Shown here: piece by piece, positions 2,035 to 45,263 of the stretch | How positions within the stretch are numbered: position 1 is the stretch's first letter | Layout of the letters: each line of letters opens with the position of its first letter | From: Alphaproteobacteria bacterium | Lineage (GTDB): Bacteria > Pseudomonadota > Alphaproteobacteria > CAAGCB01 > CAG-977 | NCBI GenBank assembly: GCA_024413465.1 | Contig: JAKSVU010000002.1 | Span: 75,063 to 139,062, forward strand | Direction of reading: 5' to 3' | Length of the DNA: 64,000 nt | Notes under the pieces: model-generated | Told to the model about the DNA's origin: nothing | Database searches by the model: none | What the model saw: the letters and a program-made list of their open reading frames with translations, nothing else | Position numbers and translations under genes: made by a program

Positions 2035-2037
2035 GCG

Positions 2038-2424
2038 ATGGATGATAAGACAAAAGATGCTTTTAAAGAAATGGTAATGCCTTTAATTACAGGTATTGGG
2101 ACGACTATTGCTGTTGGTGCTATTACTTCTGCTTTAACAAAATATTTGGTTACAAATTTTGAAGAAAAAGATGTGACAGGAGATCGAGAGGTAAAACCTA
2201 CGGATACGGAAACAACTGTTAATAAAGCTGAGGTTTCAGGAAATGAAACTGAAGGAAAGTTAGCAAAAGATGGCGTGAATGGAACTGAAGGCAAAATTAA
2301 AGCAAACGAAACAAAAGGAATTGCTTCGACAGCTGAAGCAACTGCTGCTGATGCTGGGGCTCAAGCATTGCGTACAAAAGCTGGTGCGATGGAAGTTAAA
2401 ACAAAAGGATTGGAAATCCAGTAA
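2038..2424 (+). CDS. small single-pass membrane protein with Thr/Glu/Gly/Lys-rich tail (possible immunity/accessory protein)
   Basis: ATG lies 4 nt after the upstream stop, with an AGGAG-like RBS (caggag). One hydrophobic helix (PLITGIGTTIAVGAITSAL) is followed by low-complexity ETEGK/TEGK repeats. Confidence 0.45.
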   Translation: MDDKTKDAFKEMVMPLITGIGTTIAVGAITSALTKYLVTNFEEKDVTGDREVKPTDTETTVNKAEVSGNETEGKLAKDGVNGTEGKIKANETKGIASTAEATAADAGAQALRTKAGAMEVKTKGLEIQ

Positions 2425-2492
2425 AAATATAGCATTTATATGTGTGATAAATATGATTTTTAGTGAATAAAAGAGGACGAGGAAAATATAAA

Positions 2493-3746
2493 ATGAGCGA
2501 TAAATTAGAATGGCGAAACAGACATTTTGCATTGCTGAGATGTAAAGATTTGAAAGATGCAGTTGATTCTGAAAAATATGTGTGTCGTCCTGATTTGAAA
2601 GATTTTTACAAGAAAAATTTAGTCGAAGACGTAATTTGGGATTTTGCGGATGCCGGACGATATAAATGTGCTACAGAATTAATGGGATACGTTGGTCATC
2701 ATCGGGCAGTAGTTTGGTGGGCATATCAATGTGCGTTATCTTTGATGGAAGAATTGGAAAAAAATCCAGCACCAACTGTCGATATTGATAATATTGGAAA
2801 ATCATTCGAGCCAGAAGTTCCTGATTTTGCCAAGGTTGAAATTCCTAAGATTACGCCGGAACAACAAGGTGAAATTGATAAAAATATGGCGAATTTAAAC
2901 CAAAAAGTTCAGGAATTGCGTGCAAAATGTGATCCAGAATTGTTGGGGATGGCTGATGAATTGATGGATACTTTTTATCAAGAATTTAAAAAAGTTCACG
3001 GGTATACACCACTTGAATTGATAGATTTAGCTGGAAAAAAATATAGGGAAGAAATTGAGCAAGGAAACGTTGATAGAAACAGTCCTATTTTTAAAGAGTG
3101 TGAAAAGATAAAAGCTCAACTTCAGAACGTTCGTAAGGAAACTTTAGATACGATTCATACAGTTCTCCCTCCTGAATTGCCAGAAGTGAAGAAAGAACAA
3201 TCTTTAAAAGCAATAAAATCTGTTTATAACTGGATTTTGGCTCCAGATGAAATTAACGCAAAAATCTGCTTAGATTGTGGAAATGCTTGTCCAGATGCTC
3301 CGGCTGGAATTTTGGCATATTGTGCATTTTGGGCTTGGGGAGATATGCTTCCTGGTGAAAAAACAGATGTCGTTGTTAAAACACCTGCAGGTTTAATGTC
3401 AAACGGGATATCTCAATTTTTGTTGATGTGTGCTTTGCATAAAGGAGGAACGCGTAAATTAAAAGAACGTTATGCCGAATATTTTAGATTAGGTGTTGAT
3501 GTTTTGACAGGCAGAAATCTTTGGGATGAAGCAGTGATTTCTGGGGAAGTTCCTCATGAAAAATTCCTTCAAGAAAATGAAAATTCAAATGGCGTAGAGG
3601 TTAAGAAAACTTCTCCTGTTCAAGCTGAAGTGAAAGAAAATGATAAAAAAGTGGATGAAAATTCTGATATAGATGATTTTGAACGGAAGGTTACTCAAGC
3701 TGGCTATAGAAAAGAGAAAAAATATACTCGTTGGAAACCAGAATAA
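2493..3746 (+). CDS. hypothetical protein (Cys-containing, no recognised family)
   Basis: The ORF is open from GTG 2463; ATG 2493 is preferred because of the RBS AAGAGGACGAGGA. It is the third gene of the same operon and is followed by the terminator at 3771-3807. Confidence 0.5.
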   Translation: MSDKLEWRNRHFALLRCKDLKDAVDSEKYVCRPDLKDFYKKNLVEDVIWDFADAGRYKCATELMGYVGHHRAVVWWAYQCALSLMEELEKNPAPTVDIDNIGKSFEPEVPDFAKVEIPKITPEQQGEIDKNMANLNQKVQELRAKCDPELLGMADELMDTFYQEFKKVHGYTPLELIDLAGKKYREEIEQGNVDRNSPIFKECEKIKAQLQNVRKETLDTIHTVLPPELPEVKKEQSLKAIKSVYNWILAPDEINAKICLDCGNACPDAPAGILAYCAFWAWGDMLPGEKTDVVVKTPAGLMSNGISQFLLMCALHKGGTRKLKERYAEYFRLGVDVLTGRNLWDEAVISGEVPHEKFLQENENSNGVEVKKTSPVQAEVKENDKKVDENSDIDDFERKVTQAGYRKEKKYTRWKPE

Positions 3747-7395: not shown

Positions 7396-7496
7396 TTAAG
7401 GGCAAAATATGCCTAGTTTGATGTGATATTAACTTTTTTTTAAATGAATCAAGATAAGCTGACTGTATATCTATGGATGACAGAAGGAATCAGGTT

Positions 7497-10400
7497 ATGC
7501 GAATAAAAAAGAATTGGAAATTTGCTGGATTGTTAATGCTTTCAACGGCATTGATGCCTGTTCCTGGATATACAAGTGCTACATTGGAAATTTCAAGCCA
7601 ACCCTTAGGGAATCAATACGTTGATGAGCGAACGGCCACGAATGATGTCGAAATTACATCCACTGGAGATATTAAGTTTAATTCAAGTTTTAAGGAACTT
7701 TGGTCATATTACAGTTATGTCACGAATGAGACAGGAGAAGTTTCTTTTGAAAGAATAGGTGACACAGTGACATATACACCTGAACAAGTTCAAAGTGCAC
7801 CGCAAGATTATAAAGGTGATATTGTTTTTAGTAGTAGCGGAAAATTTTCAGATTCGGATGATGCTGGGATACGAATTTACAAAGGGTTAGATGTTTTAGA
7901 GATTGGGCAAAGTGAAATTCAGACGCCGGGGAATATAATTATTCAAGCAGGAACTTTTAATTTTACTCAAAAACAAGGTGAGATTCTGTTAAGAAGATCT
8001 GCTAGTGGTAATTTTACGATTAATGGGGGAAAATTTGTTGTTGGAGAACATGGTAAAGCTCTCATCGGTCAAAAGTTTTATTCTGATGGTGGTTTTGGGA
8101 AAACAAGTACTAAACTTTTTATTAACTCAGGAACTTTAGATATTGCAGCTGGAGGAATTTTACAATTTAGTGGATATAACGTTCAATATGGAGGCGGTTC
8201 TACTAATAAAGTTATGATAACAGATTCTTCTGCGGGAATTTTATCCTTTATTGGGGGAAATAGTGAGTCAGCTAAAACCATAGATATTAAAGATTCAATT
8301 GATTTAAGCCAAGGGGAATTGAATTTATATTCTGGAAATATGATTTTAAATGCTGATGTAACCGTTAAAAAATTTAGTTTTGGAGATACAACGGATGTTG
8401 ACGCTACAATTTTAGGAATTAAAACTCCAGAAGGACAAATTTTGAACGTTGATAAAAGTCATCATCTGACAGTTTCTGAAGATTTTGTTATGAAATCAAA
8501 TTCTCATCTAATTGGTGATGGTGTTCTTTCACTAGAACATGGAGCGAGTGCGACTTTTGGTATTTTGGATTTTGGAACGATTTCAGTAAGTGGTCAAAAT
8601 GGAAGTGATGTCTATGGAACAATCACTTTTATGGGGGCAGCCAATTTGATTAATTTGGAAGCTGAGGGGTCAAAAATTCAAAATAATTCTAATTTAACAG
8701 TTGAAAATTTGACTTTAAAAGCAAATGGGGCTGATAAATCTGAACTTACTTTGGCAAAGGCTGATGAAGGTGGAACTGCATATTTGTATATAGACCATTT
8801 TGATATTGAAGGTGGAACGGTTGTATTTAATCAAGATAGTCAATTGTACATTAGGAAAGATGCGATAATTAATGAATTGACAACGATAAATGGAAAAGGA
8901 ACAATTAATTTTACCAGTGATCCTAGCAAGGAAACAGGTGTTTTAGAATTTAAAGATTCCGTTGAAAATTCAACAAAAACTATTTCAATTGCGGAAACAA
9001 TTAATTTAGTTGTTGGTAATGGAGGAACCGTAGATTTTAATTTATCAAATGGTTTGACTGGTTTTAATCTTGTAAGTGTAGAAGATGGACTGCTAAAGGT
9101 CTCTCAATCAGAAAATATAATACATAAACTTGTTTTGGGACAGGCAGCTTCTTCGAAATCTTTTGTGCTACAAGTTGCAGAAGGAGCTACTTTAAATTTT
9201 GATAAATATGCGTATATTTATCCTGGTGCTCAGCTGAATATTGATGGAACGTTATCCATTAATGGAACGACAGATGAAGGGGAATATGTTGTTTCTGGTA
9301 AATCATCAACGATAGCTGCTGCAAAGGGAACTGAAACAAATGTGGTTGGTTCTGGAACTTTACAATTAATTGGTAAGATCACTTCAAATGCATCCTATAA
9401 CATTGAAAATCTTGTTATTGGTGATGGAACAACGACGACGGTTACGCATGATACAAGAGGAACTTCTTCTTCAGATTGGTCAAGTCAACATTTCGCTCAA
9501 AATTTAACAGTCAATGCAAATGCAATTTTAAACATTGACGGTGGTGAATTGGATACAGCAGGATTAAGTGGTGATGGGACAATAGTTATCAATACAAATG
9601 GAATTTTAGGGGTTGATTCTACTTCAGAATTAACAGGCGTTGGTTCAATTTCAGGTGATGGAACGTTAAAATTATTAAACGCTACAAATATGACATTGTT
9701 AGCAGATTCATCGTCTTCTTTAAAGGTTTCAATCGGAACTGGAACTTTAACAATTGGAACGGATGGTTCAACATCAAATACAAAGTTTGGTTCATTGTCA
9801 TTTAATGATTCTGCGAATGGTGGTTCTGTTGTTATCAATGATGGAAGTTCACTTTCATTGGGCTCAATTAATGTTTCTGGGAAATCAAGTTTAATTGGAA
9901 AAGGGAGTTTATATTTAGCAACAGCTCCAGCAGATTATGGAAAAATTTCCTATATTTCTGGTGGGGGAAATTTAGATTTCAATAAAATTGAAATTACTTA
10001 TGGTGGTTTAATTGTTTCTAGATCAGGAAAAATTGAAGATTTAACTACAATCGGTTTACAAGTTTCTGGATCAGGAACGTTATTGAATGTTAATAAAATA
10101 ACGGCTGATGGAAATTCTGGGGGGATTGGTCTTACAGATGGGGCGTCACTTCAAGTTGAAAAATTTATGACTTCAAGTACTGTTGTTGGAACTGGAACGT
10201 TAGTGGCGGGAGAAGGACAATTTGATTCACATGCAGTTTCTGATTTTATGGGGTATGCTTATCCTGTGTTAGATACGCTAGATAAATCTTTGTCAGGAAT
10301 ATTGACTGTTCAGGGTGAGATAAATAATGTTCGTGTAACTCAAGGAACATTAGAAATAGAGGGAACTAATCATTTTTATGCGAGTGAGTTGACAAAGTTA

Positions 10401-13400
10401 GGTTTGACTGTTCAAAATATTGATGTTTTAAGTGGAGAATTAAAGAATTCATCTAATGGCGGAGAAGGGTTAATAGTTTCTAATTCTGGACATTTTGGGA
10501 ATGGAACAATTGGTGGATTAAGTAAATTAACTGCAGCTAATAATGATGTTAGATTCACATTTGATGGTACAAATACCCTTGTAAGTTATGATATGAATAA
10601 TACGAATTCTGTTGTTCAGATTAATCAAGGGGGAACCTTAAATTTAAAAGATTGGTCAAATGAAACGACTGATCATAAGTTTATAGGGGCAGGAACTTTA
10701 TCTGTGCAAAAGGATTCAGGAGAATTAAAGTCCACAATTGAAAATTTAGGTGTGTTAGAAATTAATGCTTCTTCCTTTACGTTATCGTCACAATTGAATA
10801 ATTTGGGTGAATTAGATTTAGAACAAGGTGGTACAACAATTGCTTCAAATGGAACTGTTGGAACTTTAGTAATTGATCAATCTTCAACAATTGTTAATGG
10901 AACACTTACAATTACGAATAAACTAGACGTTCAAGAAGATACTTCAGGTACAGGTACGTTCATTATTCAATCTGGTTCTGCTGATTTTGGTGCTAACTTT
11001 GCAGGTAATTTAGAAATTGGTTCTGTTGCAAATATCAAAGAGAATATTTCACTTGGAAATGTTACATTCTCTTCAAGTAACGGTGGAACATTGAATATTG
11101 AAGAAGGAAAAACGTTAACTTTGAGTTCTTTGACAACAAGTGGAAGAAACGTTGTTAATGGTGCAGGTGTTTTAGCTGTTAGTGGTTCAGGATCAAGTTT
11201 TGGTGCTCCAATCAATGGATTAGGAAAGTTAGATTTAAAAACGTCTAGTTCAGATGCTACTTTTAATCGAAGTGCAAATATTTCAGAAATTTCATTTGCC
11301 GGAGGTAGTTCAGTTACAGTAAATTCTGGATATACGTTGACTGTATCGACGTTGTCAGGAACAGGAACTCCGAGTGTCCAGGGAGCTGGAACGTTTTCTT
11401 TTGATGGTAATACAAGTGAGTCAGATTTGAACGTTGGTAGTGGATTAGGAACGTTAAACGTTATTTCTGGTAAAATAAAAATAGTTGAAGACGGAACAAT
11501 CGGAAACGTGTCTTTGTCTATGGGTAATTTAGCTGTTGCAGATGGTAAGACTTTGACGGTAAATAACATAGATGGAGCAGGTGAATTATCTGCTGAGGGA
11601 AGTTATTCTGCTAAGTTAGTTCTTAACAATTCTGCAAATTTTGTAAAGAACGTTTCTAACTTTAATACGATTATGTCAACGGGAAGAACTGTTTTTCAGA
11701 ATGGAATTGATGTTACAAACTTGAATATAGCTTCAGGAATGACTTCAATTAATGGAACTTCAAATACAATTGGAACGCTAACAATTGATGGAACTTTGGA
11801 TATTGGTGGGTATCAAAAAGTAAATGCTACAAATGTTACCTTTAATCCAGGTTCTTCCTTAAATTTGAATATTAATCCAGAATCGCTAGCTTTAGGGCAA
11901 ATTCAATCTTCAAATGTAACAATTAATCCTAATGTAGCTTTAAATTTGAATATCGGATATGGTGTGAAAAAGGATGGGATGGAATTCCGAGTTGTTGATG
12001 GCGGTGTTCCTAATGGTGAATTTTCAGTGGTTTCAAATAATCGCTATAATTTGACAAATACAAATTGTTCAGGTGGCTTGTGTTATAAAATTGTTCAGAC
12101 TGCAACAGGGGAAGAAGTTGTAAATCAGTCTGGAGGAAGTAACAATGATGCTGCAGTTGCAAGGGCTGTTTTAGATAGTGAAATTTTCAAACCAACAGAT
12201 AGATTCTACCCAGTTGCGGTACGATTGTATGATTTGTCTTTATATGGAAGTGCCAAGGAATATCGTGATGCTTTGACAACAGTTGCACCTGATGTGACAG
12301 GATCTGCGATGAAGCAATCTATTGACGTCCAATCACAAATCACAAATATTGCTTTTTCAAGATTACAACGGTTGGGGAGTAATTTAGGATCAAGAGCAAC
12401 AAATTATGGTTATAAAAAAGCCTATGGACATGCAGGTGGTAATTACTATAAATATCGTGGTAATTCTAGAAGTTCGTACAGAAGTAGTGATTTAGGTGAT
12501 ATCAAAAAATATAAGCGAAACAATGAATATGAATATTATCGTGTAAAACCGACTACCGTCCAAAAGTATGATGCTAGAAAGTATAATCGTTATCAAGATG
12601 TAACACCTACAACAGGAAAAGTAGAAACTTCGGTTGCTCCAAATTATCAAAAGTATTATGGAGCTTCATCTTCGGATCCAAAACGTTATGAAAGATTTAA
12701 AAATTCCTATGGTGTGTATGAAAATAATGAACGTTTAGATTCTACAGATCCGAAGAAATATTCTCGTTCTCGTGATACCATTTTATATCAACAAGAAAAA
12801 ACACAAACTGTTTTGACTCCGGAAAAGAAGTATCAGCGTAAGATTTTACAGCCATCATCAAATGGAACGGTTGTTGCAGATTCTATGAAATATAAACATA
12901 CAGGATATCAACCTTTCCAAAATAGACTTGATTTTGGCGTATGGGCAGAAGGTTTCTTCAATACAAACGAATATAAAAATGAAAATGATCCAGATGGGTT
13001 CTCTTCGGATACAACCGGATTTGCAACAGGTATGGATATCTCATTTCTTGATATGTTTGCATTCGGCGTTGGGTATTCAAATTCACAAACAGATTTGAAG
13101 ACGTTGAATCGTAAGACTGACGTTAATGGAAATACGTTCTTTATGTATGGTATGGTTAAGCCTAATAATTTCTACGTCAGTGGATTCTTGGGCTTTACAT
13201 CAAATGAATATAAAGAACATAAGAAGATTAAAGGCATTAAAGAAATCGAAGATAATTATGATGGTAGTTCAGTCGGAGCTCAGATTAATATTGGTTATGA
13301 TTTAGGACAATGGCATCCAGAAGTTGGTGTTCGCTATACCAATGCAAAATTTGATGCAAGAACTGATTCTGTTGGTCAAAAGGTTGATTCATACAGTGGT

Positions 13401-13718
13401 ACCGTTGGTACGGCATTGGCAAATGTAACATATGAGACGGATTTACGTAGAACTGATTCCGATGTTGTTTCTGCTGATTTTAGCGTAGGAGTTTCTTATG
13501 ATTTCAAAACAGCAAAACAAAAAAATACTGTTGCTTTAGAAAATGGATCAAGTTATACCGTTGAAGGAGCTTCTTTGGATAAGTTTGGTATTGAAGCCGG
13601 AGCTGGTATTTCATATAAGGCAAATGATCACGTTGAATTTCGTGCTGAATATGATTGCGATTATAAAAAAGATTTCATATCACATTCTTTGAAAGCACAT
13701 GTTCGTTATAACTTTTAA
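7497..13718 (+). CDS. giant classical (type Va) autotransporter with beta-helical passenger and C-terminal beta-barrel
   Basis: The ORF opens at 7473. ATG 7497 is preferred (RBS AGGAA; signal peptide MRIKKNWKFAGLLMLSTALMPVPGYTSA). There are ~1600 aa of Gly/Thr/Ser/Asn-rich pseudo-repeats (GTL, NGT, LxV), then a Y/K-rich linker. The last ~300 aa have alternating hydrophobic beta-strand patterning and end in the aromatic residue ...RYNF. Confidence 0.85.
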   Translation: MRIKKNWKFAGLLMLSTALMPVPGYTSATLEISSQPLGNQYVDERTATNDVEITSTGDIKFNSSFKELWSYYSYVTNETGEVSFERIGDTVTYTPEQVQSAPQDYKGDIVFSSSGKFSDSDDAGIRIYKGLDVLEIGQSEIQTPGNIIIQAGTFNFTQKQGEILLRRSASGNFTINGGKFVVGEHGKALIGQKFYSDGGFGKTSTKLFINSGTLDIAAGGILQFSGYNVQYGGGSTNKVMITDSSAGILSFIGGNSESAKTIDIKDSIDLSQGELNLYSGNMILNADVTVKKFSFGDTTDVDATILGIKTPEGQILNVDKSHHLTVSEDFVMKSNSHLIGDGVLSLEHGASATFGILDFGTISVSGQNGSDVYGTITFMGAANLINLEAEGSKIQNNSNLTVENLTLKANGADKSELTLAKADEGGTAYLYIDHFDIEGGTVVFNQDSQLYIRKDAIINELTTINGKGTINFTSDPSKETGVLEFKDSVENSTKTISIAETINLVVGNGGTVDFNLSNGLTGFNLVSVEDGLLKVSQSENIIHKLVLGQAASSKSFVLQVAEGATLNFDKYAYIYPGAQLNIDGTLSINGTTDEGEYVVSGKSSTIAAAKGTETNVVGSGTLQLIGKITSNASYNIENLVIGDGTTTTVTHDTRGTSSSDWSSQHFAQNLTVNANAILNIDGGELDTAGLSGDGTIVINTNGILGVDSTSELTGVGSISGDGTLKLLNATNMTLLADSSSSLKVSIGTGTLTIGTDGSTSNTKFGSLSFNDSANGGSVVINDGSSLSLGSINVSGKSSLIGKGSLYLATAPADYGKISYISGGGNLDFNKIEITYGGLIVSRSGKIEDLTTIGLQVSGSGTLLNVNKITADGNSGGIGLTDGASLQVEKFMTSSTVVGTGTLVAGEGQFDSHAVSDFMGYAYPVLDTLDKSLSGILTVQGEINNVRVTQGTLEIEGTNHFYASELTKLGLTVQNIDVLSGELKNSSNGGEGLIVSNSGHFGNGTIGGLSKLTAANNDVRFTFDGTNTLVSYDMNNTNSVVQINQGGTLNLKDWSNETTDHKFIGAGTLSVQKDSGELKSTIENLGVLEINASSFTLSSQLNNLGELDLEQGGTTIASNGTVGTLVIDQSSTIVNGTLTITNKLDVQEDTSGTGTFIIQSGSADFGANFAGNLEIGSVANIKENISLGNVTFSSSNGGTLNIEEGKTLTLSSLTTSGRNVVNGAGVLAVSGSGSSFGAPINGLGKLDLKTSSSDATFNRSANISEISFAGGSSVTVNSGYTLTVSTLSGTGTPSVQGAGTFSFDGNTSESDLNVGSGLGTLNVISGKIKIVEDGTIGNVSLSMGNLAVADGKTLTVNNIDGAGELSAEGSYSAKLVLNNSANFVKNVSNFNTIMSTGRTVFQNGIDVTNLNIASGMTSINGTSNTIGTLTIDGTLDIGGYQKVNATNVTFNPGSSLNLNINPESLALGQIQSSNVTINPNVALNLNIGYGVKKDGMEFRVVDGGVPNGEFSVVSNNRYNLTNTNCSGGLCYKIVQTATGEEVVNQSGGSNNDAAVARAVLDSEIFKPTDRFYPVAVRLYDLSLYGSAKEYRDALTTVAPDVTGSAMKQSIDVQSQITNIAFSRLQRLGSNLGSRATNYGYKKAYGHAGGNYYKYRGNSRSSYRSSDLGDIKKYKRNNEYEYYRVKPTTVQKYDARKYNRYQDVTPTTGKVETSVAPNYQKYYGASSSDPKRYERFKNSYGVYENNERLDSTDPKKYSRSRDTILYQQEKTQTVLTPEKKYQRKILQPSSNGTVVADSMKYKHTGYQPFQNRLDFGVWAEGFFNTNEYKNENDPDGFSSDTTGFATGMDISFLDMFAFGVGYSNSQTDLKTLNRKTDVNGNTFFMYGMVKPNNFYVSGFLGFTSNEYKEHKKIKGIKEIEDNYDGSSVGAQINIGYDLGQWHPEVGVRYTNAKFDARTDSVGQKVDSYSGTVGTALANVTYETDLRRTDSDVVSADFSVGVSYDFKTAKQKNTVALENGSSYTVEGASLDKFGIEAGAGISYKANDHVEFRAEYDCDYKKDFISHSLKAHVRYNF

Positions 13719-29995: not shown

Positions 29996-31789
29996 ATGAT
30001 GTCATTTTTAAAGAAAAAAAAGAAAGATTTACCACCAATTACAAAAGAAAATGTTTTGATGTATAAACGTGTATGGATGACATACATTGCTCCTAAATGG
30101 AAGTGGTTGGTAGCATCAGTTGCACTTATGTTAATCGCATCAAGTTTTGATGCTTTGTTGGTGATGCAATTAAAGCCAATATTTGATGAAGTTTTTATTG
30201 ATAAAAATCAAACAATGTTGTTGGATATAGGGTTAAAAATTTTGGCTCTTTATTTGGTAAAAGGAACTTTCAGTTATACTCAAGCATTAGTAATGACTAA
30301 ATTATCCATTTTTGTCATTCGTGACATGCAATTTGAGGTCTACAAAAAGCTTTTACGCATGGATAGTAAATTTTATCAAAAACATACTTTAGGCGAAATT
30401 TTAACTCGTTTTGGTTCTGACGTAAGTACGATTAAAAGTGCGACTTTAGGGTCATTAATTACATTTGTTCGAGATGCAGGATCTGTTTTTTTCCTAGTAA
30501 TAGTGATGTTTTATCAATGTTTTGAAATGGCTTGTGTCGTTTTCTTTGTTTTCCCATTGGGCATTTGGCCAATCGTAATTTGTGGTAAAAAAATGAAGAA
30601 AAAATTTAAGCGTAATCGTAAAGTAGGTGAAGATTTCTTTGATATGATTACTCAATCTTTCAAAGGCATAAAAATTGTTAAGTCATATTGCACAGAAGAT
30701 TTCGAATTTAATAACGTAAAATCTTCTATCGAAAAAATGAATAAATTGTCATTTTCAATGGCATGTATTGATTCACTACAACATCCTTTGATGGAATTCA
30801 TAGGTGGTATTGGCATGACCGCTGCTTTAGCGTATGGTGGCTATGAAATTATGAAAGGTAATATGACACCAGGAAACTTCGTCGTGTTCCTGTTGGCTAT
30901 TGTTGCCGCATATAAGCCAATGAAACAGTTAGCGAGTGTTCATATGACATTGCAAACAGGTATAGTATCAATGGAAAGATTATTTTCTATGATTGATATT
31001 GAACCTGCAATTAAGGATAAGCCTGATGCAAAACCTTTGGTGATTACTGAAGGTCGAATTGAAATGAAGAATATTTCCTTTTCTTATGATGACGATGGCT
31101 TAAAGGTTTTAAAAAATGTTTCTGTTGAAGCAAAACCAAATGAAACGATTGCATTTGTTGGTCATTCTGGATCTGGGAAATCAACGTTGATTAATTTTAT
31201 GCCAAGATTTTATGATCCTGAGACAGGATATGTAAAAATTGATGGTCAGGATGTTCGAGATGTGACTGTAGAAAGTTTGCGTCGTCAAGTTGCTTATGTT
31301 TCGCAGGATGTTGTATTATTCCATGATACGATTAAAAATAATATTCGTTATGGAAATCCAGATGCAACGGATGAACAGGTTATCGAAGCAGCAAAAGCTG
31401 CTGCTGCTCATGATTTTATTATGCAAACAGAAAATGGTTATGAGACAGTTCTAGGAGAACAAGGTGCGGGGTTGTCAGGTGGTCAACGTCAAATGATATC
31501 AATTGCTAGAGCTATGTTAAAGAATGCTCCTATTTTATTGTTGGATGAAGCAACCGCTGCATTAGATTCAAAATCAGAACATATTGTTCAACAATCTTTG
31601 GAACGTTTGATGCAAAACAGAACAACTATTGTTATTGCTCATAGATTATCAACAATTGTACATAGTGATCGTATTTTCGTATTTAGCGAAGGTGAAATTG
31701 TTGAACAGGGAACACATGATGAATTGGTTGCTTTAGATGGTATTTATGCTCAAATGTATAAAATTCAATTTATGAAAGAAGATGAATAA
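29996..31789 (+). CDS. ABC exporter, fused permease/ATPase (MsbA-like lipid exporter)
   Basis: Six TM helices followed by an NBD with Walker A GHSGSGKST, signature LSGGQRQ and Walker B LLLDEAT. Confidence 0.8.
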   Translation: MMSFLKKKKKDLPPITKENVLMYKRVWMTYIAPKWKWLVASVALMLIASSFDALLVMQLKPIFDEVFIDKNQTMLLDIGLKILALYLVKGTFSYTQALVMTKLSIFVIRDMQFEVYKKLLRMDSKFYQKHTLGEILTRFGSDVSTIKSATLGSLITFVRDAGSVFFLVIVMFYQCFEMACVVFFVFPLGIWPIVICGKKMKKKFKRNRKVGEDFFDMITQSFKGIKIVKSYCTEDFEFNNVKSSIEKMNKLSFSMACIDSLQHPLMEFIGGIGMTAALAYGGYEIMKGNMTPGNFVVFLLAIVAAYKPMKQLASVHMTLQTGIVSMERLFSMIDIEPAIKDKPDAKPLVITEGRIEMKNISFSYDDDGLKVLKNVSVEAKPNETIAFVGHSGSGKSTLINFMPRFYDPETGYVKIDGQDVRDVTVESLRRQVAYVSQDVVLFHDTIKNNIRYGNPDATDEQVIEAAKAAAAHDFIMQTENGYETVLGEQGAGLSGGQRQMISIARAMLKNAPILLLDEATAALDSKSEHIVQQSLERLMQNRTTIVIAHRLSTIVHSDRIFVFSEGEIVEQGTHDELVALDGIYAQMYKIQFMKEDE

Positions 31790-37864: not shown

Positions 37865-39202
37865 TTATCTACTAATCTGTTTGGATTGTGCAACCAACAT
37901 TGTAACTGAAGAATTGCTTTTAGATTTTTGTTCAGCTAAATTATCGGAAGCTTTCAAATTTAATTTTTTTATTCCTTGTTGAACAGATTTTATCATGTCA
38001 TTTGAAAGAGGAATATCAACAGTTGACGTATATAATTTTGCAGAATCAACTTTTAAACGATCTGAAATAGATTTTGGTAATTCGACTTTATCAACAATTT
38101 CAGGATTAAATCCCATACGAATTTTTTTTGCCATGAACAAATAAAGTTTTTCATCTTGAAGTGTTTGTTCTGCCTGAGGATTTTTTTCTCCTTTAATAGC
38201 GGATTGATTTATTTGTTCTACGGCATCTATTGTTTTCAAGATAGAATAATAGATAGGCTTGTCATTCGTAGCAAAAGAACACTTTTTACTGATATCTTGG
38301 CGTGTTTCTGTAATGTATTTATCCGCATAAAAATGATCATTTTTGTTTTTCAAATCTCGTAAAGGCATTTGAGCAACAGTATCGTCGTTATCTTGTCCAT
38401 AACAAACAGCCCCAGCATTATAAATTTCTAAAAATGCTTGAGTGAGATTGTGAATTTGTTTTGCTTTTGGTGTTAAAACGAATTGTTCGAAATCGGGAAC
38501 TTTATCTCCGCCACAGAATGCTTTGATATCTTTTGGTGTGCCATGAACAAGAGGACCTTTTTCATACGAATTTTGACCTAAACAACTGATAACACTTTCA
38601 ACGTCATACCCATTTTCATAGGCTGCTGTAATTCGTTCATCATCATACCAACCACGATAAGCCCCAGCTACACCGTCCTTTTCCCAACCATCTGCAATTT
38701 GAGTATACGTTCCTGCAAAAGCATCACGGGGAGCTGTGTCACCAAGCTCTGCCCATTCATTACAAGCTTTATAAGCTTGAGATTGAGCATCAGCTTCTGT
38801 TGCACGATAAATCATCTGATTTGTTTCATAATCTAAATGTTGGCTTTCATATTCACCACGACCTGCATGGTCTTGCCACAAATGGCGAGCTTCATGAACC
38901 AGACAAGACCGTAATTTGTCTATTCCACATTTTTTATTTAGCGTAATAATGTTTTGGCTTGGTGTATAGCAACCAACAGATTTTCCTAAATCATCAGCCA
39001 ATTTAAAAGGAGTTTCATGTTTTTTCATTTCATCCAAAGCTTCACGACCTGTTGGAATTTTATTCAAGGATTGAAGAATTTGTTCAACCATTAAATAGTC
39101 GCTTTGTTTGCAAATGACGGTTATGCCTTCAATTTCCCATTCGTGTGGACGTTCTTTTGTCTGAAAATCACTTTGTAAAAATATATCGTTAAAGGCACCC
39201 AT
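37865..39202 (-). CDS. HExxHxxQD zincin-like (DUF4157-like) protein, paralog 1 (445 aa)
   Basis: GCYTPSQNIITLNKKCGIDKLRSCLVHEARHLWQD. No signal peptide is evident. It lies 9 bp downstream of paralog 2 on the same strand. Confidence 0.55.
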   Translation of the reverse strand: MGAFNDIFLQSDFQTKERPHEWEIEGITVICKQSDYLMVEQILQSLNKIPTGREALDEMKKHETPFKLADDLGKSVGCYTPSQNIITLNKKCGIDKLRSCLVHEARHLWQDHAGRGEYESQHLDYETNQMIYRATEADAQSQAYKACNEWAELGDTAPRDAFAGTYTQIADGWEKDGVAGAYRGWYDDERITAAYENGYDVESVISCLGQNSYEKGPLVHGTPKDIKAFCGGDKVPDFEQFVLTPKAKQIHNLTQAFLEIYNAGAVCYGQDNDDTVAQMPLRDLKNKNDHFYADKYITETRQDISKKCSFATNDKPIYYSILKTIDAVEQINQSAIKGEKNPQAEQTLQDEKLYLFMAKKIRMGFNPEIVDKVELPKSISDRLKVDSAKLYTSTVDIPLSNDMIKSVQQGIKKLNLKASDNLAEQKSKSNSSVTMLVAQSKQISR

Positions 39203-39211
39203 TTTAATACC

Positions 39212-40315
39212 TTATCTGTTGTTTAACTTGTTTTGTAAAGCTTGTTGCATTGCTACGGATTTTTTTGAATCTCTCGTTGTTTTAGGGGCAGATCTAGATC
39301 CGGCACATATCATTGCAGAAGGATCATTTTCTATATTATCAAAAGTTTTTTTGTTTTCAGTCGAATACATTTTCATATAAGACTTGTCTTCTTTTGAAAA
39401 CAAGAAATGAGAACGGAAATTTTTCTCAATCATTTTAATTGATTCAAAACCAGCAGGAGAAAGTGATAGAGCTTCTGGAGAAGTCAAATAATCAGCATCA
39501 ATTTTTTTATTTAATCCTGGTGTTATGAAAATTTTATCTAACACGTCTTGGTTTGATATTTGCCCACGCAAAGAATCAGATTGAGTAAAATTTTGCTCTC
39601 TACCTTTTAAACCATACTTAATCGCATAAATATGATCTTTTTCATAAGATTGTTGATAGTGAGGATAGTTATACCATTCTTTGAAAGCTTTCTCACTTGC
39701 TTTATCCAAATCTCCAGATTCACTCATTTCTTTATCAAAAACTTGATACATTGGGAATTGAGCAACATGGGACAAAACTTCAGGATATTTATCTTTTATT
39801 TGATAAGCAAAACGAGCTTCTTCAGTCCAAGCTGCAGCTTCACAAGCACGATTAAATTTGAATTGGTCTGCAATATTTAATGAAGATGAATCACTTAATA
39901 ATTGATTTGAATCTGTATCTTGAACAGCATGAACCATTTCATGAAATGCAGTCGCAGCCATTCCTGCTATACTAGAATGTTGGCAAGGACATAACATAAT
40001 TCTTTTATTTCCACCAGACATTGATCCATCAGCATCACCACCATAAGCATTAAACGTAAATTTAAAGCCGGCAGCAGCAACTCTATCAATCAAATCTTTG
40101 CCTGCAGGAACGGAAGAAATAACATCAAATACCTGTTTTAATTGTTCTTTTTCAACTTCTTGAGGATCGCGAACATTTCTAACAGTTCTAGAAACATAAC
40201 CTGCCGTCAAAACGTTTTCAAAAGCAACCTTTAAAGTTCCTTCCATATCTTGACGATTAGGAACAGGTTGTTCGACTTCTTTTTTCTTTCCGAATATATC
40301 TGACAAGAAAGACAT
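39212..40315 (-). CDS. HExxHxxQD zincin-like (DUF4157-like) protein, paralog 2 (367 aa)
   Basis: GGNKRIMLCPCQHSSIAGMAATAFHEMVHAVQD. The RBS is AAGGA. Confidence 0.55.
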   Translation of the reverse strand: MSFLSDIFGKKKEVEQPVPNRQDMEGTLKVAFENVLTAGYVSRTVRNVRDPQEVEKEQLKQVFDVISSVPAGKDLIDRVAAAGFKFTFNAYGGDADGSMSGGNKRIMLCPCQHSSIAGMAATAFHEMVHAVQDTDSNQLLSDSSSLNIADQFKFNRACEAAAWTEEARFAYQIKDKYPEVLSHVAQFPMYQVFDKEMSESGDLDKASEKAFKEWYNYPHYQQSYEKDHIYAIKYGLKGREQNFTQSDSLRGQISNQDVLDKIFITPGLNKKIDADYLTSPEALSLSPAGFESIKMIEKNFRSHFLFSKEDKSYMKMYSTENKKTFDNIENDPSAMICAGSRSAPKTTRDSKKSVAMQQALQNKLNNR

Positions 40316-40406
40316 AATTTTATATCCTTATTAACTATAGTTATGTTATATTTATCGCAAATTAATGTTTTTGTCTATAATTTTTTTCTAAAAAGGCGTA
40401 AAAATC

Positions 40407-40622
40407 ATGAAAGAATATAAGGTTGTTGTTTGGTCAGAATCAATGCTTTCGAAATTTTTCTTTGGTGAAGGAAAAGTAAACGAACGCAGTGTCGAAGATT
40501 TGTTGAATAAATATGCTCGTGAAGGATGGGAAGTTAAGACCCTTTCTCGTGAAAATCGCAGAACACTCCTTTTTGCAAAAAGAGAAGCTCTTGTTTTTAT
40601 TTTAGAAAGAGAAGTACGATAA
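40407..40622 (+). CDS. DUF4177-like small protein
   Basis: MKEYKVV....LLNKYAREGWEVKTLS....LLFAKRE matches the DUF4177 pattern. Confidence 0.55.
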   Translation: MKEYKVVVWSESMLSKFFFGEGKVNERSVEDLLNKYAREGWEVKTLSRENRRTLLFAKREALVFILEREVR

Positions 40623-40640: not shown

Positions 40641-41135
40641 TTATCTTGCTTTGTCTGCCATTAACTTATTTAAAACGGCTTGGTTTGAACTTTTTGATTC
40701 AATAGGTGAATCAAAATTTTCTGCCATTTTATGTAAAATGTTTAAATTTGGAACAGTGTACGTATGTTGCCCATTTGACATAGGAACGTAATAATCAGAC
40801 CAAACGTCTTTTGCGCCCATTTTTTTCATTTCTTCAGCGATACGACGATCTGCAAATAAATGACATTTTGGATAAAAAACATCCTTGCGTCCCGGAGCAT
40901 ATTCATAACTGGTTAAACAATAAACACCATTATTGTATCCGATGGCTGGAGTTGGATCATCTTTCAATCTGCGAACAGCGGCTTCTTTTTCGGAAAGATC
41001 GACAGAATGAATTCCTTTTTCACCCAAATTGCTGTATTGCATATTTACGTCAAAATCGATAAATAAATTTGCTGTTTTAGGATTTGCTTTGATAAACTTC
41101 TCTAAAAATCCGACGTTTTTTGTATCTATTTCCAT
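40641..41135 (-). CDS. hypothetical protein (164 aa, no recognised family)
   Basis: Good RBS (tGAGGAAtaatt ATG) and soluble composition. Confidence 0.5.
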   Translation of the reverse strand: MEIDTKNVGFLEKFIKANPKTANLFIDFDVNMQYSNLGEKGIHSVDLSEKEAAVRRLKDDPTPAIGYNNGVYCLTSYEYAPGRKDVFYPKCHLFADRRIAEEMKKMGAKDVWSDYYVPMSNGQHTYTVPNLNILHKMAENFDSPIESKSSNQAVLNKLMADKAR

Positions 41136-41153
41136 AATTATTCCTCACAAACA

Positions 41154-42146
41154 ATGTTGAGAAGAATTGTAGAGCATAATCGCAGAAAAGGAAACTATTT
41201 TTTCAAAGGATCCTTAATTCTATCAACATTTTATCCGATTACTATTTATGGAAATGGTGAGAAAAATCAAGTTGATGTATCAATAGAATGTTCTGAAATA
41301 TTTTCAAAAGCAGATAATTTACAAGGGCTCTTATGTAATGCTAAAAATATTATTGAACAGTTTGATGTTAAAGAAAAAGAATTTGTCGATGTTTTAGAAA
41401 TCGCAAAAAGTAATTTAGAGAATTTAGAAAATAGAATATCCTGTGCTGATGAAGATATTAAAATCATTTTAGATAATCGAAAACAGTCTGATCAAGAATT
41501 GAATAATGTACTAGGAATAAAACAATCTTTTGAAAATAATTGCGATAAAGTAAAAGAATTATTGGATGAAAATGAGCAATTGAAAATTGATTTAAAAAAT
41601 CAAATTCAAAGAACAAAAGAGTTAAATCAAAAAATAGAGGATTTGATACCAGGGGCAACATCTGTTGGACTGGCTTCTTCATTTAATAAAAAAGTATCAG
41701 ATTTAACACCATCAAAATATATTTGGTTATCAATTTTTATAGGATGTTTAATTTGGCTATTTATTGTAATTTTAAATATAAATAAGGAAGAATTATCCGG
41801 AGCCAATGATATTCAATACCTTTTTAAAAATATTCCATTTGTGATAGCTCCGATTTGGGGCGGATGGTTTTCTGCAAGAAGTTATGGTCATATTGTTCGT
41901 TTGCAAGAAAAGTATAATTATAAATCGGCAATGTCCATAGCTTTTGAAGGATATAAAAAGCAATTTGCAGATATTAAAACTTCTGAATCCGTGGAAGGAA
42001 TGCTTTCAATATTATCGATGAAAGTATTATCAGATAATCCCTCTGATGTATTTGAACGAGGATGTAATGATGAAACACCTTTTCACAGTATAATTAGTAA
42101 ATTTATAAAAACTTTCTCAAAGAATAAGGAAGAAAATAAAATCTAA
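41154..42146 (+). CDS. hypothetical coiled-coil membrane protein (start uncertain)
   Basis: Long ORF with a coiled-coil-prone middle (ENLENRISCADEDIKIILDNRKQSDQELNN...QLKIDLKNQIQRTKELNQKIEDL) and one TM helix (YIWLSIFIGCLIWLFIVILNI). The annotated ATG is only 18 bp from the divergent gene start and lacks an RBS. Confidence 0.4.
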   Translation: MLRRIVEHNRRKGNYFFKGSLILSTFYPITIYGNGEKNQVDVSIECSEIFSKADNLQGLLCNAKNIIEQFDVKEKEFVDVLEIAKSNLENLENRISCADEDIKIILDNRKQSDQELNNVLGIKQSFENNCDKVKELLDENEQLKIDLKNQIQRTKELNQKIEDLIPGATSVGLASSFNKKVSDLTPSKYIWLSIFIGCLIWLFIVILNINKEELSGANDIQYLFKNIPFVIAPIWGGWFSARSYGHIVRLQEKYNYKSAMSIAFEGYKKQFADIKTSESVEGMLSILSMKVLSDNPSDVFERGCNDETPFHSIISKFIKTFSKNKEENKI

Positions 42147-42192
42147 CAGAAAAATTAGAATGGTAAAATTTACAGAGGTATATAACATTATG

Positions 42193-43962
42193 TTCAAAAA
42201 GTTAAAGCAAAAAATTCTAAGTTTACCGATGTTTGTGAACTATCGCAAGATGTGGCCATACGTTAAACCATATTCTTTTCGCGCTATTTGTGCGGTATTG
42301 GTGACTTTGCCAATTGGTTCATTTGATGCTTTGACAGCTTGGATTTTAAAACCTTATATGGATGTTGTTTTGGTTGAAAAACAGGTAGCTGCAGCGTCTT
42401 TGATGCCATTGGTTATTGTGGCAGGCAGCTTTTTACAAAGTTTTTGCAACTATGCAGCAACATACTTGAATACTTGGGTTGGTCAAAAAATTACAATCAA
42501 GCTGAAAGGTGATTTGTATCATAAATTGTTGGAAAAGGAAGCAAACTATTTTGATCATACTTCCTCTGGCGACATTATTATGAATTTTTCAAAATGTGCA
42601 GAAACAGCTTGTAGTGGATTGTTGGCAAACGTAAAATTGTTCACAACACGTATCTTTTCATCTATTTCTTTGATTGGTGTTTTGTTTTGGAATTCTTGGC
42701 AATTGTCTATTGTTGCTTTGCTTTTTATGTTTGGAGCATTATTGCCATTAACAAAAGTGCGTAAGAAGATAAAATCAATTATGTCAAAACAAATTGGTGG
42801 AATGGCAGCAATAACAACCCATTATAATGAAACGTTTGCAGGAAACCGTATTATTGCTTCGTATAATTTGCATGAATATCAAGAAAAGAAATTTATGAAT
42901 GATCTGACTGGATTGTTCAAAGTTTCTATTAAGATGGTGCAAAAAACAGGAATGTTGTCCCCGATGATTCACTTTATTATTTCTTTGGGGATTGCTGGGG
43001 CAATTTGGTTGGGAAGTTATTTGATTGTTACTCATCAAATCAGTAGTGGTAACTTCGTTTCCTTTATTGCTGCTTTGTTGATGTTATATGGCCCAATCAA
43101 AGGAATTGGAAATACGTTCACCTCTGTTCAAATGTCTTTCATGATGATGGATCAAGTTTTTGCAACTTTAGAAAGTATTCCAACTATTCGCAACGTTGAT
43201 AATCCAGTTCATATTGATGGAGTTCATAAAGATATCGTTTATGATCACGTCAATTTTGAATATATTCCAGGTAAGCCAGTATTAAAAGATATCAATGCCA
43301 AAATAGAAATTGGTAAAATGTATGCGTTTGTTGGTAATTCTGGTGGTGGAAAGACAACGTTTGTCAATTTAATACCTCGTTTTTATGATATTAAGGGTGG
43401 AAGTATTTTAATTGATGGCGTATCTGTTAAAAATATAGATTTACATGATTTAAGAGAAAATATAGCGATTGTGTTCCAGGATAATTTCTTGTTCAATGGA
43501 ACGATCAGAGAAAACATATTATTGGGCAAAAAAGATTACAAAGAAGAAGATTTACAGAAAGCGATTGAATCAGCTTGCTTGACTGATTTTATCAAAACTT
43601 TGGATAAAGGGTTAGATACTGAAATCGGGGAAAGAGGAGTTTTGTTGTCTGGAGGACAAAAACAACGAGTGGCTATCGCAAGAGCGTTTATGAAAAATGC
43701 ACCGATTGTTATTTTGGATGAAGCAACGTCTGCTTTGGATAATAAGTCAGAAGCGATTGTACAACAAGCTATTGATAATTTGATGAAAGACAGAACTGTT
43801 TTAGTGATTGCGCACAGATTATCTACCGTTAAAAATGCTGATAAGATTTTTGTGATTAATGAAGGAAATATTGTTGAAGAAGGAACTCACGAAGAGTTGA
43901 TAGCATTAAAAGGTGAATATGCAGCTTTGTATGAAATGCAATTTAAGACAAAGAAAAATTAA
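42193..43962 (+). CDS. ABC exporter, fused permease/ATPase (second MsbA-like paralog)
   Basis: Six TM helices plus an NBD (GNSGGGKTT, LSGGQKQRVAIARA, ILDEATSALD). ATG 42193 (MFKKLKQ) is preferred over 42160. Confidence 0.8.
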   Translation, partial: FKKLKQKILSLPMFVNYRKMWPYVKPYSFRAICAVLVTLPIGSFDALTAWILKPYMDVVLVEKQVAAASLMPLVIVAGSFLQSFCNYAATYLNTWVGQKITIKLKGDLYHKLLEKEANYFDHTSSGDIIMNFSKCAETACSGLLANVKLFTTRIFSSISLIGVLFWNSWQLSIVALLFMFGALLPLTKVRKKIKSIMSKQIGGMAAITTHYNETFAGNRIIASYNLHEYQEKKFMNDLTGLFKVSIKMVQKTGMLSPMIHFIISLGIAGAIWLGSYLIVTHQISSGNFVSFIAALLMLYGPIKGIGNTFTSVQMSFMMMDQVFATLESIPTIRNVDNPVHIDGVHKDIVYDHVNFEYIPGKPVLKDINAKIEIGKMYAFVGNSGGGKTTFVNLIPRFYDIKGGSILIDGVSVKNIDLHDLRENIAIVFQDNFLFNGTIRENILLGKKDYKEEDLQKAIESACLTDFIKTLDKGLDTEIGERGVLLSGGQKQRVAIARAFMKNAPIVILDEATSALDNKSEAIVQQAIDNLMKDRTVLVIAHRLSTVKNADKIFVINEGNIVEEGTHEELIALKGEYAALYEMQFKTKKN

Positions 43963-44072: not shown

Positions 44073-45263
44073 TTATTTTGATATTAACCAATTTAAAACG
44101 TTTAATCGCTTGATGCCATCATAATTTTCGTTTGGTAGATAATCTAGCGTTAGCAGATATTTCGGGTGATTGTCTTTTATGTTTTGAAGTGGTTTTAGTT
44201 CTCGCTTCAAAACGGTTTCATCCAGAATAGTCTGAGATATTTGATAATAAACAGTTTCTTCTTGATTGACTGCCACAAAGTCTACTTCTGTATCGGCTAA
44301 TTTCCCGACGAAAACGGTATACCCTCGTCTAATCAATTCGAGATAAACGATGTTTTCCAATAAATGTCCGGTATCTGATCCTTTTTTACCTAATAAAGCG
44401 TATCTAATTCCAGTATCTACAAGGTAATATTTGTCTCCGCTTTGTAAATATTTTTTACCTTTAATATCATAACGGGAGGCTGGATATAAAATAAAACTTT
44501 CTGTCAAAGCATTCAGATATTTTTCAACTGTTTGAGGAGATATTTTATAACCAGCAGAAGTCATTGTATCACTGATCTTTTTTACAGAAATAACGTTTCC
44601 AACAGTATCAAATATAAATTTTAAAATTCTGAGAACTTCAGAAGTATCTGATATTTTATGACGAACTAAAACGTCTTTGATGACGATGGAATTAAGAATA
44701 TCGGATAAATAATTTTTGATAGAGGCGTCATCATTGATTTGTAACACGAATGGAAATGAACCATATTCTAAATAACGGGCATATTCTGCTTGTAAATTTG
44801 GATTTTCCGTTTTTGAAATAAATTCTTTAAAAGAAAGAGGAAGCATTTTTATTTCAACGTAGCGACCAGATAATAAAGTTGCCAGTTCTCCGGATAATAA
44901 AAAAGCATTTGATCCTGTAACGTAGATATCAAAACCTTCTTGAATATATAAACTATCAATTGCTTTTTGAAAATCTGCTACATTTTGAATTTCATCCAAA
45001 AAAATATAGTTCTTTTTCCCTTTTTGTGCGTGTTTCATTACAAAATCATATAATTTTTTTGGTTCTAATAAATCGCTGAATGCCATATCTTCAAAATTAA
45101 TAGACTGAATTTGTTTGGCAGAAACGCCATTGTTTTTTAAGTATTCTTGAAATAAAAGAAATAGCGTAGATTTACCACAACGCCGAACACCAGTTACGAC
45201 TTTGATTAATTGTTTATCCTTGAAGGTAATCAATTTATTTAAATATTCCATCCGTTCTATCAT
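44073..45263 (-). CDS. AAA+ ATPase with C-terminal DUF4143-like domain
   Basis: Walker A GVRRCGKST, Walker B IFLDEIQ, and a C-terminal region typical of the DUF4143 ATPase family. Confidence 0.7.
   Translation of the reverse strand: MIERMEYLNKLITFKDKQLIKVVTGVRRCGKSTLFLLFQEYLKNNGVSAKQIQSINFEDMAFSDLLEPKKLYDFVMKHAQKGKKNYIFLDEIQNVADFQKAIDSLYIQEGFDIYVTGSNAFLLSGELATLLSGRYVEIKMLPLSFKEFISKTENPNLQAEYARYLEYGSFPFVLQINDDASIKNYLSDILNSIVIKDVLVRHKISDTSEVLRILKFIFDTVGNVISVKKISDTMTSAGYKISPQTVEKYLNALTESFILYPASRYDIKGKKYLQSGDKYYLVDTGIRYALLGKKGSDTGHLLENIVYLELIRRGYTVFVGKLADTEVDFVAVNQEETVYYQISQTILDETVLKRELKPLQNIKDNHPKYLLTLDYLPNENYDGIKRLNVLNWLISK

Follow-up and report, generated by a model that had tools for sequence, protein, structure and literature searches.

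Some zincins are small, soluble proteins without a signal peptide. NleD, an effector of type III secretion systems (T3SS), is a small soluble zincin that cuts one host protein at one site (PMC13325838); together with HopH1 and XopG it belongs to family M91, and the Legionella protease RavK is built alike. The minigluzincins selecase, proabylysin and projannalysin, which are archaeal, about 110 residues long and serve as models of M48 and M56 cores, gave a precedent for self-inhibition, since the C-terminal tail of proabylysin reportedly reaches the zinc and thereby blocks the enzyme (PMC5557861). Other relevant families are M78 (ImmA/IrrE/PprI), SprT/Wss1/Spartan and DUF4157 (PF13699), the zincin domain of polymorphic toxins and of the cargo of extracellular contractile injection systems (eCIS). 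As to export, one known type of translocation signal for type IV secretion systems (T4SS) is a cluster of positive charge at the C-terminus; effectors of Agrobacterium and Bartonella carry such signals, and for VirF 19 residues are enough (PMC10025392). Here, we describe two adjacent genes, A and B, that encode putative metallopeptidases of the Pfam family PF20573 (DUF6782). They are located in a 64-kb stretch of DNA from an uncultured alphaproteobacterium of the gut (assembly GCA_024413465.1, contig JAKSVU010000002.1, positions 75,063 to 139,062), the whole of which is called the window below.

Both proteins matched PF20573, which is described as a "putative metallopeptidase" and named "DUF6782 family putative metallopeptidase" as an NCBI product, in a hmmscan against Pfam-A (A 92.9 bits, B 93.0 bits, E about 2e-26; gathering cutoff 27 bits). 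Because each reached about 93 bits against one and the same model, the motif shared by A and B is not a product of chance. At E <= 1 the only other match was SprT-like for A (E = 0.063; 13.6 bits, cutoff 25.6), and no match for A or B was found in NCBIfam, in PADLOC or among the sequences of the PDB. Compared directly by BLASTP, the two proteins were 20% identical over 167 aa (E = 0.008). For A 49 homologs were found, most of them 33-47% identical and two close relatives 87-96%, for B 34 homologs with 38-60% identity plus relatives at 87-100%; all 83 bar one fragment are annotated as PF20573. Since the similarity between A and B is very low and each has its own orthologs, the sequences indicate that they are anciently diverged paralogs, representing two subfamilies, and not the outcome of a recent duplication. 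Members of both subfamilies were found in common metagenome-assembled genomes (MAGs) even where the genes are unlinked, namely in MJ247 (P0003, P0052), IJ752 (P0031, P0068) and RGIG5000 (L021, L053), and the hosts of the A and B orthologs include many Alphaproteobacteria MAGs from gut, rumen and faeces. B was 100% identical to P0050, a protein of an NCBI "Alphaproteobacteria bacterium" MAG; P0050 is named "NAD(P)H-dependent oxidoreductase" in one NCBI source though it belongs to DUF6782, and this product name is probably mis-assigned.

The family is much larger than these two sets. A DUF6782 profile search in 1.84 billion representatives returned 1,206 clusters (at 50% identity) at E <= 1e-3 and 126 at E <= 1e-30, and all named members came from uncultured "Alphaproteobacteria bacterium" MAGs. 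Scanning one genome per species revealed 38 loci in MAGs from human gut, rumen, horse faeces and a few environmental sources; a metagenome scan gave 4 loci. One contig labelled "Limosilactobacillus gorillae" (L017, CAVCSV010000033.1) holds an alphaproteobacterial block in which DUF6782 and UvrA are syntenic, and is probably mis-binned.

The initial annotation of the window, made from the letters alone, had described A and B as paralogous zincin-type metallopeptidases encoded by two minus-strand open reading frames (ORFs) of 445 and 367 aa, 9 bp apart. The coordinates proved exact, paralogy is supported by the common Pfam model, and the zincin assignment by the DUF6782 match and a motif conserved in all orthologs, so that none of the outcomes which the annotation had named as refuting occurred. 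Of the motif block said to be shared by both, HExxHxxQD is indeed present in both proteins, but "G.Y.P" exists only in A (GCYTP); B has G-S-M-S-G in its place. Membership in DUF4157, which had also been put forward, was not borne out: PF13699 was not matched even at E <= 1.

Conservation was centred on two motifs (positions in Table 1). HExxHxxQ was invariant in alignments of 49 A-type and 32 B-type homologs and, together with R-A-x-E-A, across both subfamilies. Among 64 distant members H-E-x-x-H-x-x-Q and E-A-D-A were invariant, HExxH was kept in 137 of 141 representatives, mostly as HE(A/C/S)RHxxQ, and every copy of every DUF6782 array retained it. As read from these alignments, the His, Glu and His of the HExxH motif and the downstream Glu are conserved as would be expected of a selected active site. 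The downstream Glu is located about 29 residues past the second His, as in IrrE-type zincins, and because the architecture is that of a gluzincin, E136 of A and E159 of B are predicted to be the third zinc ligand. The A-subfamily consensus HEARHLxQNNQGR is followed by no conserved His. Outside the core, W185, Y195 and D273 (A numbering) were invariant and E196 nearly so (>=90%); the motif AYRGWYDDERITAAYE, which holds three of these residues, would line the cleft.

AlphaFold2 (AF2) models of A (mean predicted local distance difference test score, pLDDT, 89.2; predicted template modelling score, pTM, 0.85) and B (pLDDT 86.5, pTM 0.83), built on the homolog alignments, were confident. In the model of A, a three-stranded sheet (66-69/77-80/85-89), preceded by a beta-hairpin (residues 20-31) and two helices, leads to a long helix (94-119) with H103-E104-x-x-H107 and a second long helix (125-152) with R133-A134-x-E136-A137. 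Elements equivalent to the A core are present in the model of B, where HExxH and the Glu likewise occupy two successive long helices. As modelled, the layout of the core is that of a canonical zincin/gluzincin. Foldseek searches against the PDB retrieved only zincins, for the A core selecase (probability 0.99), jannalysin and Wss1, and for the B core M1 aminopeptidases, anthrax LF, IrrE/PprI, thermolysin, selecase and Wss1; among viral models SprT-like cores were found. The helical domain of 200-270 residues after the core matched none of the solved structures in Foldseek. The last 26-33 residues of both proteins were disordered (A 420-445, B 335-367; pLDDT <50).

Compared with PF20573 as a whole, the pair shows no family-level difference; like other members, A and B have the HExxH core, fall into the length class of 300-450 aa and come from an alphaproteobacterial host. 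The best structural matches were the minigluzincins, which have the sheet and the backing, HExxH and third-ligand helices in common with A and B, but the core of the pair is embedded in a protein of 370-445 residues with an extra helical domain, and identity amounted to about 20% over 90 residues (E 0.1-4). When the PDB sequences were searched with the family profile, nothing significant was found; the best match was IrrE of M78 (E = 0.43), aligned over G..G.y.p....I.l...HE..H. M78 proteins resemble the pair in having a helical C-terminal extension and a similar distance between the second His and the Glu ligand, but neither A nor B matched M78, and no adjacent helix-turn-helix (HTH) repressor and no prophage or integrative and conjugative element was seen in nine contexts annotated with Pfam (L001, L004, L006, L046, L049, L051-L054; "annotated contexts" below). 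M91 and RavK are, like the pair, small soluble zincins without a signal peptide, but A and B did not match M91, no T3SS or Dot/Icm genes were seen, and NleD, whose T3SS signals are N-terminal, lacks a basic tail ended by Arg. A fused relative (P0124) did match M91 (32 bits, cutoff 25) as well as M78 (29 bits, cutoff 22), and a further relative (P0089) reached 24.7 bits against M91. SprT/Wss1/Spartan proteins share the minimal zincin core, basic flexible regions and the Wss1 and viral SprT fold matches, but scores were sub-threshold, the third ligand is another one and DUF6782 genes occur in multi-copy arrays. DUF4157 is likewise a minimal zincin without a signal peptide; the pair differs from it in lacking a profile match, an eCIS, Rhs or polymorphic-toxin context and an immunity gene, and DUF6782 has its own helical domain and a basic tail.

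This tail is the second hallmark of the family. It is 30-45 residues long and sits on an acidic body (net charge about -6.7). The net charge of the last 25 residues was +4.5 in the DUF6782 copies of the loci and +1.4 in 296 other proteins of the same loci (Mann-Whitney p about 1e-15); it averaged +4.3 across the 141 representatives, and further family means were +4.5 to +4.9 (range +2 to +7). The chain ended in Arg in 111 of the 141 representatives and in 78% of the locus copies, compared with 9.5% of the 296 other proteins. A right-justified alignment revealed a motif locked to the C-terminus: positions -10 to -7 were hydrophobic in 62-70%, -6 to -3 were K/R/N/S, -2 was G, S or E (basic in 1%) and -1 was Arg. 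At the other end, 155 of 209 family members had a hydrophobic-x(2,3)-F motif among their first 14 residues, whereas a hydrophobic N-terminal signal was found in none of the 141 representatives. Neither A nor B has a Sec signal or a transmembrane (TM) segment by hydropathy (maximal Kyte-Doolittle mean over 19 residues 1.45), in agreement with the initial annotation. In the literature searched, this family-wide signature of missing signal peptide, acidic body and basic tail with a terminus-locked motif is so far undescribed, and the Pfam definition, as far as checked, covers neither the C-terminal motif nor the arrays nor the split into A and B.

DUF6782 genes multiply by local tandem duplication. 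The two genes of the window are its only copies, but arrays of two to seven copies were found in relatives, in unrelated housekeeping contexts. The adjacency of B and A recurred in the 87% relative (L052) and in a MAG from horse faeces (59% and 63% identity, L004/L008); in the latter the flanks are wholly different, with a resistance-nodulation-division efflux operon upstream and a radical S-adenosylmethionine gene downstream, and the MAG carries at least seven DUF6782 copies over four loci. Furthermore, A-A tandems (L006, L011, L024), an A triple (L030), a B-B tandem (L053) and arrays of five (L046), six or seven (L049) and four (L051) diverged copies were present. Proteins of about 590-720 aa contain two DUF6782 modules per chain; since their linkers keep remnants of the tail and of the N-terminal motif, they are read as read-through fusions of tandem genes. 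The long forms were double modules only, with no fusion to a delivery domain. An argument for a targeting signal from "one tail per polypeptide" was dropped because the linkers hold such remnants. Members of about 730-746 aa (P0100, P0103, P0104, P0134, P0144) have one full module and flanking partial, degenerate core-like repeats.

The A-type gene has a conserved position in many genomes, in the order SNF-type transporter, ClC channel, glutathione peroxidase, DUF6782 gene and convergent UvrA, and another paralog group sits behind the genes for RNase HII and a DNA methyltransferase. When neighbours were clustered over about 40 loci, only synteny-linked housekeeping genes emerged; no secretion, chaperone, immunity, HTH/repressor or phage gene recurred in these loci or in the annotated contexts, and no eCIS, T6SS (type VI secretion system), T4SS or polymorphic-toxin gene stood beside a family member in the window or in the annotated contexts. 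The ratio of nonsynonymous to synonymous substitution (dN/dS) against L052 was 0.096 for A and 0.073 for B, with similar values for neighbouring genes (0.056 and 0.156); A and B are under purifying selection, and positive selection was not found at the pairwise level. An origin from a mobile element was rejected, since the GC content of the pair is like that of its surroundings and tblastn gave no match in a plasmid collection (A, B and P0186) or a phage collection (A). A role in anti-phage defence was rejected as well, A and B being without a PADLOC match.

Within the pair, a terminator scan of the 9-bp spacer and of the first 170 bp upstream found no terminator-like site, and a terminator-like hairpin at 40652-40626 (minus strand) closes the upstream gene orf164. 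Because of this hairpin the pair is regarded as a unit separate from orf164, and because the spacer holds no terminator B and A are probably co-transcribed. The promoter would lie in the AT-rich divergent region 5' of B, where promoter matches were not above those in shuffled sequence.

We consider it likely that A and B, being members of DUF6782, work as zinc endopeptidases; this judgement does not extend to an export step. They would be synthesised as cytoplasmic proteins that lack a Sec/Tat signal and a TM segment and consist of four parts: a conserved, short N-terminal peptide, a minimal gluzincin-type core that includes an edge strand, the helical domain of 200-270 residues and a flexible basic tail. 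The family-specific helical domain probably completes the substrate cleft and sets specificity, so that A and B would cut specific protein targets and not act as general degradative peptidases. Cleavage at specific sites is suggested because the nearest profile relatives, M78 (ImmA/IrrE) and M91 (NleD), are single-site, single-substrate proteases, and if the variable helical domain is the specificity module, the targets of the paralogs would differ. Most plausibly, the tail acts as a recognition signal that is read at the free C-terminus.

Our tentative preference is delivery of A and B from the cytoplasm by a non-Sec route, as effector-like proteins, a reading kept alive by the tandem arrays, the basic tail and the M91 (NleD) match of the fused relative. 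Several points weigh against it. Core genes of T4SS, T3SS or T6SS were absent from the 64-kb window and from the sides of family members in the annotated contexts, the A-type gene is syntenic, vertically inherited and flanked by housekeeping genes, and a strictly conserved terminal Arg is no described feature of T4SS signals. The tail was not placed with confidence by AF2. For the peptidase assignment, the weak point is the fold matches (E 0.1-4), those to minimal zincins with high probability aligning about 80-95 residues. A literature search for DUF6782/PF20573, including biochemistry, found nothing, and a search that combined RF32 with secretion systems was likewise without result. As a pair, A and B are unremarkable members of a Pfam family that is catalogued but wholly uncharacterised, and what deserves to be carried forward is the view of the family: through the active site, the arrays and the Arg-ended tail motif, the function of about 1,200 protein clusters can be approached by experiment, as perhaps can a non-classical targeting signal. 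Should the tail prove to be an export signal, effectors could be predicted in poorly known gut bacteria. It is doubtful, though conceivable, that DUF6782 forms an unrecognised arsenal of exported, site-specific zinc proteases in uncultured, many of them gut-associated, Alphaproteobacteria, with a new C-terminal export signal and with paralogs that target different proteins of hosts, protists or neighbours.

Instead of being exported, A and B could be intracellular proteases, cytoplasmic or possibly located at the membrane, that are held latent until release, either by the tail carboxylate and Arg plugging the active-site cleft in the way of a reaction product, after the model of minigluzincin zymogens, or by docking of the tail on an anionic membrane or on nucleic acid. 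This is possible, if somewhat unlikely. The closest solved folds are the minigluzincins, among which proabylysin provides the precedent of a tail block, and a motif locked to the free C-terminus fits recognition of a terminal carboxylate. The acidic body with its basic tail, the conserved synteny, the purifying selection and the lack of secretion genes nearby agree with an intracellular role, and the B-type N-terminus FFSNLFKK presumably resembles amphipathic membrane-targeting peptides. AF2 left the tail undocked, however, seven or more diverged copies per genome would be unusual for a cytoplasmic regulatory protease without a co-encoded partner, and 30-45 residues that are basic throughout are more than a plug needs. 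If the tail is such a plug, the zymogen principle of the minigluzincins reaches large bacterial proteases.

Delivery specifically through a T4SS, of the VirB/D4 or another type, would make the tail a signal for the coupling protein and the arrays an arsenal against host, protist or neighbour cells; we rate this as rather unlikely. The basic, disordered 20-45 C-terminal residues on an acidic protein match the Agrobacterium and Bartonella signals, the tandem paralogs occur in host-associated organisms, and besides the sequence kinship with the NleD/M91 effector family the same remote-homology pattern is given by RavK, which is a Dot/Icm effector protease; NleD and RavK set a precedent for effectors built on a minimal zincin. 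But no T4SS gene was found in the window or the annotated flanks, the family is absent from the plasmid collection, the conserved terminal Arg with its hydrophobic block matches no published consensus, and some members come from marine or sediment MAGs.

Scaffold proteins that merely have a zincin fold and no catalytic activity appear improbable. The E-A-D motif is without its Asp in the B-subfamily, where it has been lost, and catalysis in the family is a prediction from sequence and model, but across hundreds of diverged sequences and in all array copies the two His, the Glu beside the first of them and the Glu downstream do not vary. Still more improbable are proteases of DNA-protein crosslinks, similar to SprT/Wss1, whose tail would attach to DNA and whose N-terminal FxxxF peptide might contact the sliding clamp. 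The weak SprT-like matches of A and of its relatives, the presence of Wss1 and viral SprT among the fold matches and repair genes nearby (RadC in the window, UvrA in 12 loci, UvrB in L001, RNase HII with a DNA methyltransferase in 5 loci) point in this direction; against them, all scores are sub-threshold, the third ligand, a Glu some 29 residues further on, differs from that of the HExxHx5H motif of SprT/Wss1, the repair-gene associations follow synteny in related genomes and are not independent, and arrays of 5-7 copies would be senseless for a repair protease. Least probable is the DUF4157-type toxin pair of a contractile injection system or T6SS, tied to a spike-like gene, for which the HExxHxxQ signature, which we take to resemble that of DUF4157, and a possibly VgrG-like ORF with a DUF6931 gene at the other end of the window could be cited, but the DUF4157 profile is unmatched, the spike-like ORF scores below threshold (17-19 bits) and is separated from the pair by about 36 kb of housekeeping genes, genes for a sheath, tube, baseplate, PAAR or adaptor protein were absent beside family members in the annotated contexts, and there was neither an immunity-like neighbour nor a PADLOC match. 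No finding links the pair to a toxin or an injection system; the candidate toxin/effector pair of the initial annotation is unproven, with no immunity-like, chaperone, eCIS, T6SS or T4SS gene recurring in the annotated contexts or in the clustering of about 40 loci and with synteny and purifying selection instead, and its supposed link to the spike-like protein is unsupported.

Table 1 Features of the DUF6782 gene pair, of the window and of related loci (positions in the window unless a locus is named).
Feature	Position	Strand	Description
Gene B	39212-40315	-	367 aa, B-subfamily DUF6782 putative metallopeptidase, upstream member of the pair
Gene A	37865-39202	-	445 aa, A-subfamily DUF6782 putative metallopeptidase, downstream member of the pair
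Spacer GGTATTAAA	39203-39211	-	9 bp between B stop and A start
AT-rich divergent intergenic region	40316-40406	-	5' of B; the promoter of the B-A unit probably lies here
A N-terminal peptide MGAFNDIFLQSD	39167-39202	-	hydrophobic-x(2,3)-F motif
B N-terminal peptide MSFLSDIFGKKK	40280-40315	-	B-subfamily consensus M-[SG]-F-[FL]-S-x-[LI]-F-K-K
A zincin core, residues 26-152	38747-39127	-	beta-sheet, backing helix, active-site helix, glutamate helix (AF2)
B zincin core, residues 52-175	39791-40162	-	from AF2 secondary structure
A HEARHLWQD (H103, E104, H107, Q110)	38870-38896	-	predicted zinc-binding/catalytic motif, invariant in A-type and A+B alignments
B HEMVHAVQD (H125, E126, H129, Q132)	39917-39943	-	invariant in B-type alignment
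A RATEAD (R133, A134, E136, A137)	38789-38806	-	"glutamate helix" motif, invariant in both subfamilies
B RACEAA (R156, A157, E159, A160)	39833-39850	-	glutamate-helix motif, B-subfamily Ala in place of the Asp of A
A AYRGWYDDERITAAYE (W185, Y195, E196)	38615-38662	-	family-specific motif of the helical domain
B AFKEWYNYPHYQQSYE (W214, Y224, E225)	39641-39688	-	counterpart motif in B, from alignments
A basic tail, residues 416-445	37868-37957	-	ends ...MLVAQSKQISR-COOH; pLDDT <50 for 420-445
B basic tail, residues 335-367	39215-39313	-	ends ...AMQQALQNKLNNR-COOH; pLDDT <50
Double-module DUF6782 proteins	L039 4877-7030, L043 7150-9303, L051 3400-7683, L049 2822-4594		two modules per chain
DUF4177 gene	40407-40622	+	
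orf164	40641-41135	-	no family match
Coiled-coil/TM protein	41154-42146		330 aa
MsbA-like ABC exporters	29996-31789, 42160-43962	+	ABC_membrane + ABC_tran
AAA_14 + DUF4143 ATPase	44073-45263	-	PADLOC candidate defence family PDC-S01, full length, 528 bits
Autotransporter	7473-13718	+	2,081 aa, C-terminal beta-domain PF03797, 99 bits
"Spike-like" ORF	265-2034	+	589 aa, three independent sub-threshold VgrG-type matches
128-aa ORF, then DUF6931 protein	2038-2424, 2463-3746	+	3' of the "spike-like" ORF; DUF6931 60 bits

The remaining part of the window is ordinary chromosome. It encodes DXS, a polyprenyl synthase, RecA, PCMT, a TolC-like OEP, ValRS, a P-type ATPase and an M48 peptidase; RlmN, adenosine deaminase, two MsbA-like ATP-binding cassette (ABC) exporters, a sulfatase-family protein, PgpA, SfsA, Map and RadC; and NAD synthase, GltX, CysS, PmbA, glycosyltransferases and CTP synthase. 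The "spike-like" ORF matched Phage_base_V (17 bits), DUF2345 (18 bits) and T6SS_TssI_Fran (19 bits, cutoff 100), and the region 265-3746 may be a very divergent orphan spike locus, judging from these similarities; other T6SS genes were not found in the window. The passenger domain of the autotransporter had no match in Pfam or NCBIfam. Neither of these two loci is connected to the pair by anything found.

The neighbours named in the initial annotation, a DUF4177 gene, two genes without a Pfam match and the AAA_14/DUF4143 ATPase, were all recovered. The DUF4177 gene and orf164 (dN/dS 0.056) also adjoin the pair in L052 and are absent at the horse-faeces locus L004; 3' of A, RadC is found in the window and three unknown ORFs in L052. 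The ATPase stands alone between an ABC exporter and NAD synthase. This exporter begins 13 bp past the gene of the coiled-coil/TM protein, and MsbA-like genes were present within a few kb of DUF6782 in L037, L042 and L045 as well, possibly by coincidence. Export of the pair by a type I secretion system (T1SS) was set aside, as MsbA-like genes are near but no HlyD-type partner was seen; known T1SS signals are unlike the Lys/Arg-rich DUF6782 tail. Finally, the gut Alphaproteobacteria that carry DUF6782 are flagellated: L053 also has a fliE, fliQ, fliR, flhB cluster, and in the horse-faeces MAG a flagellar hook protein FlgE (L004, 1-1035) is annotated at the unusually large size of 1,299 residues.

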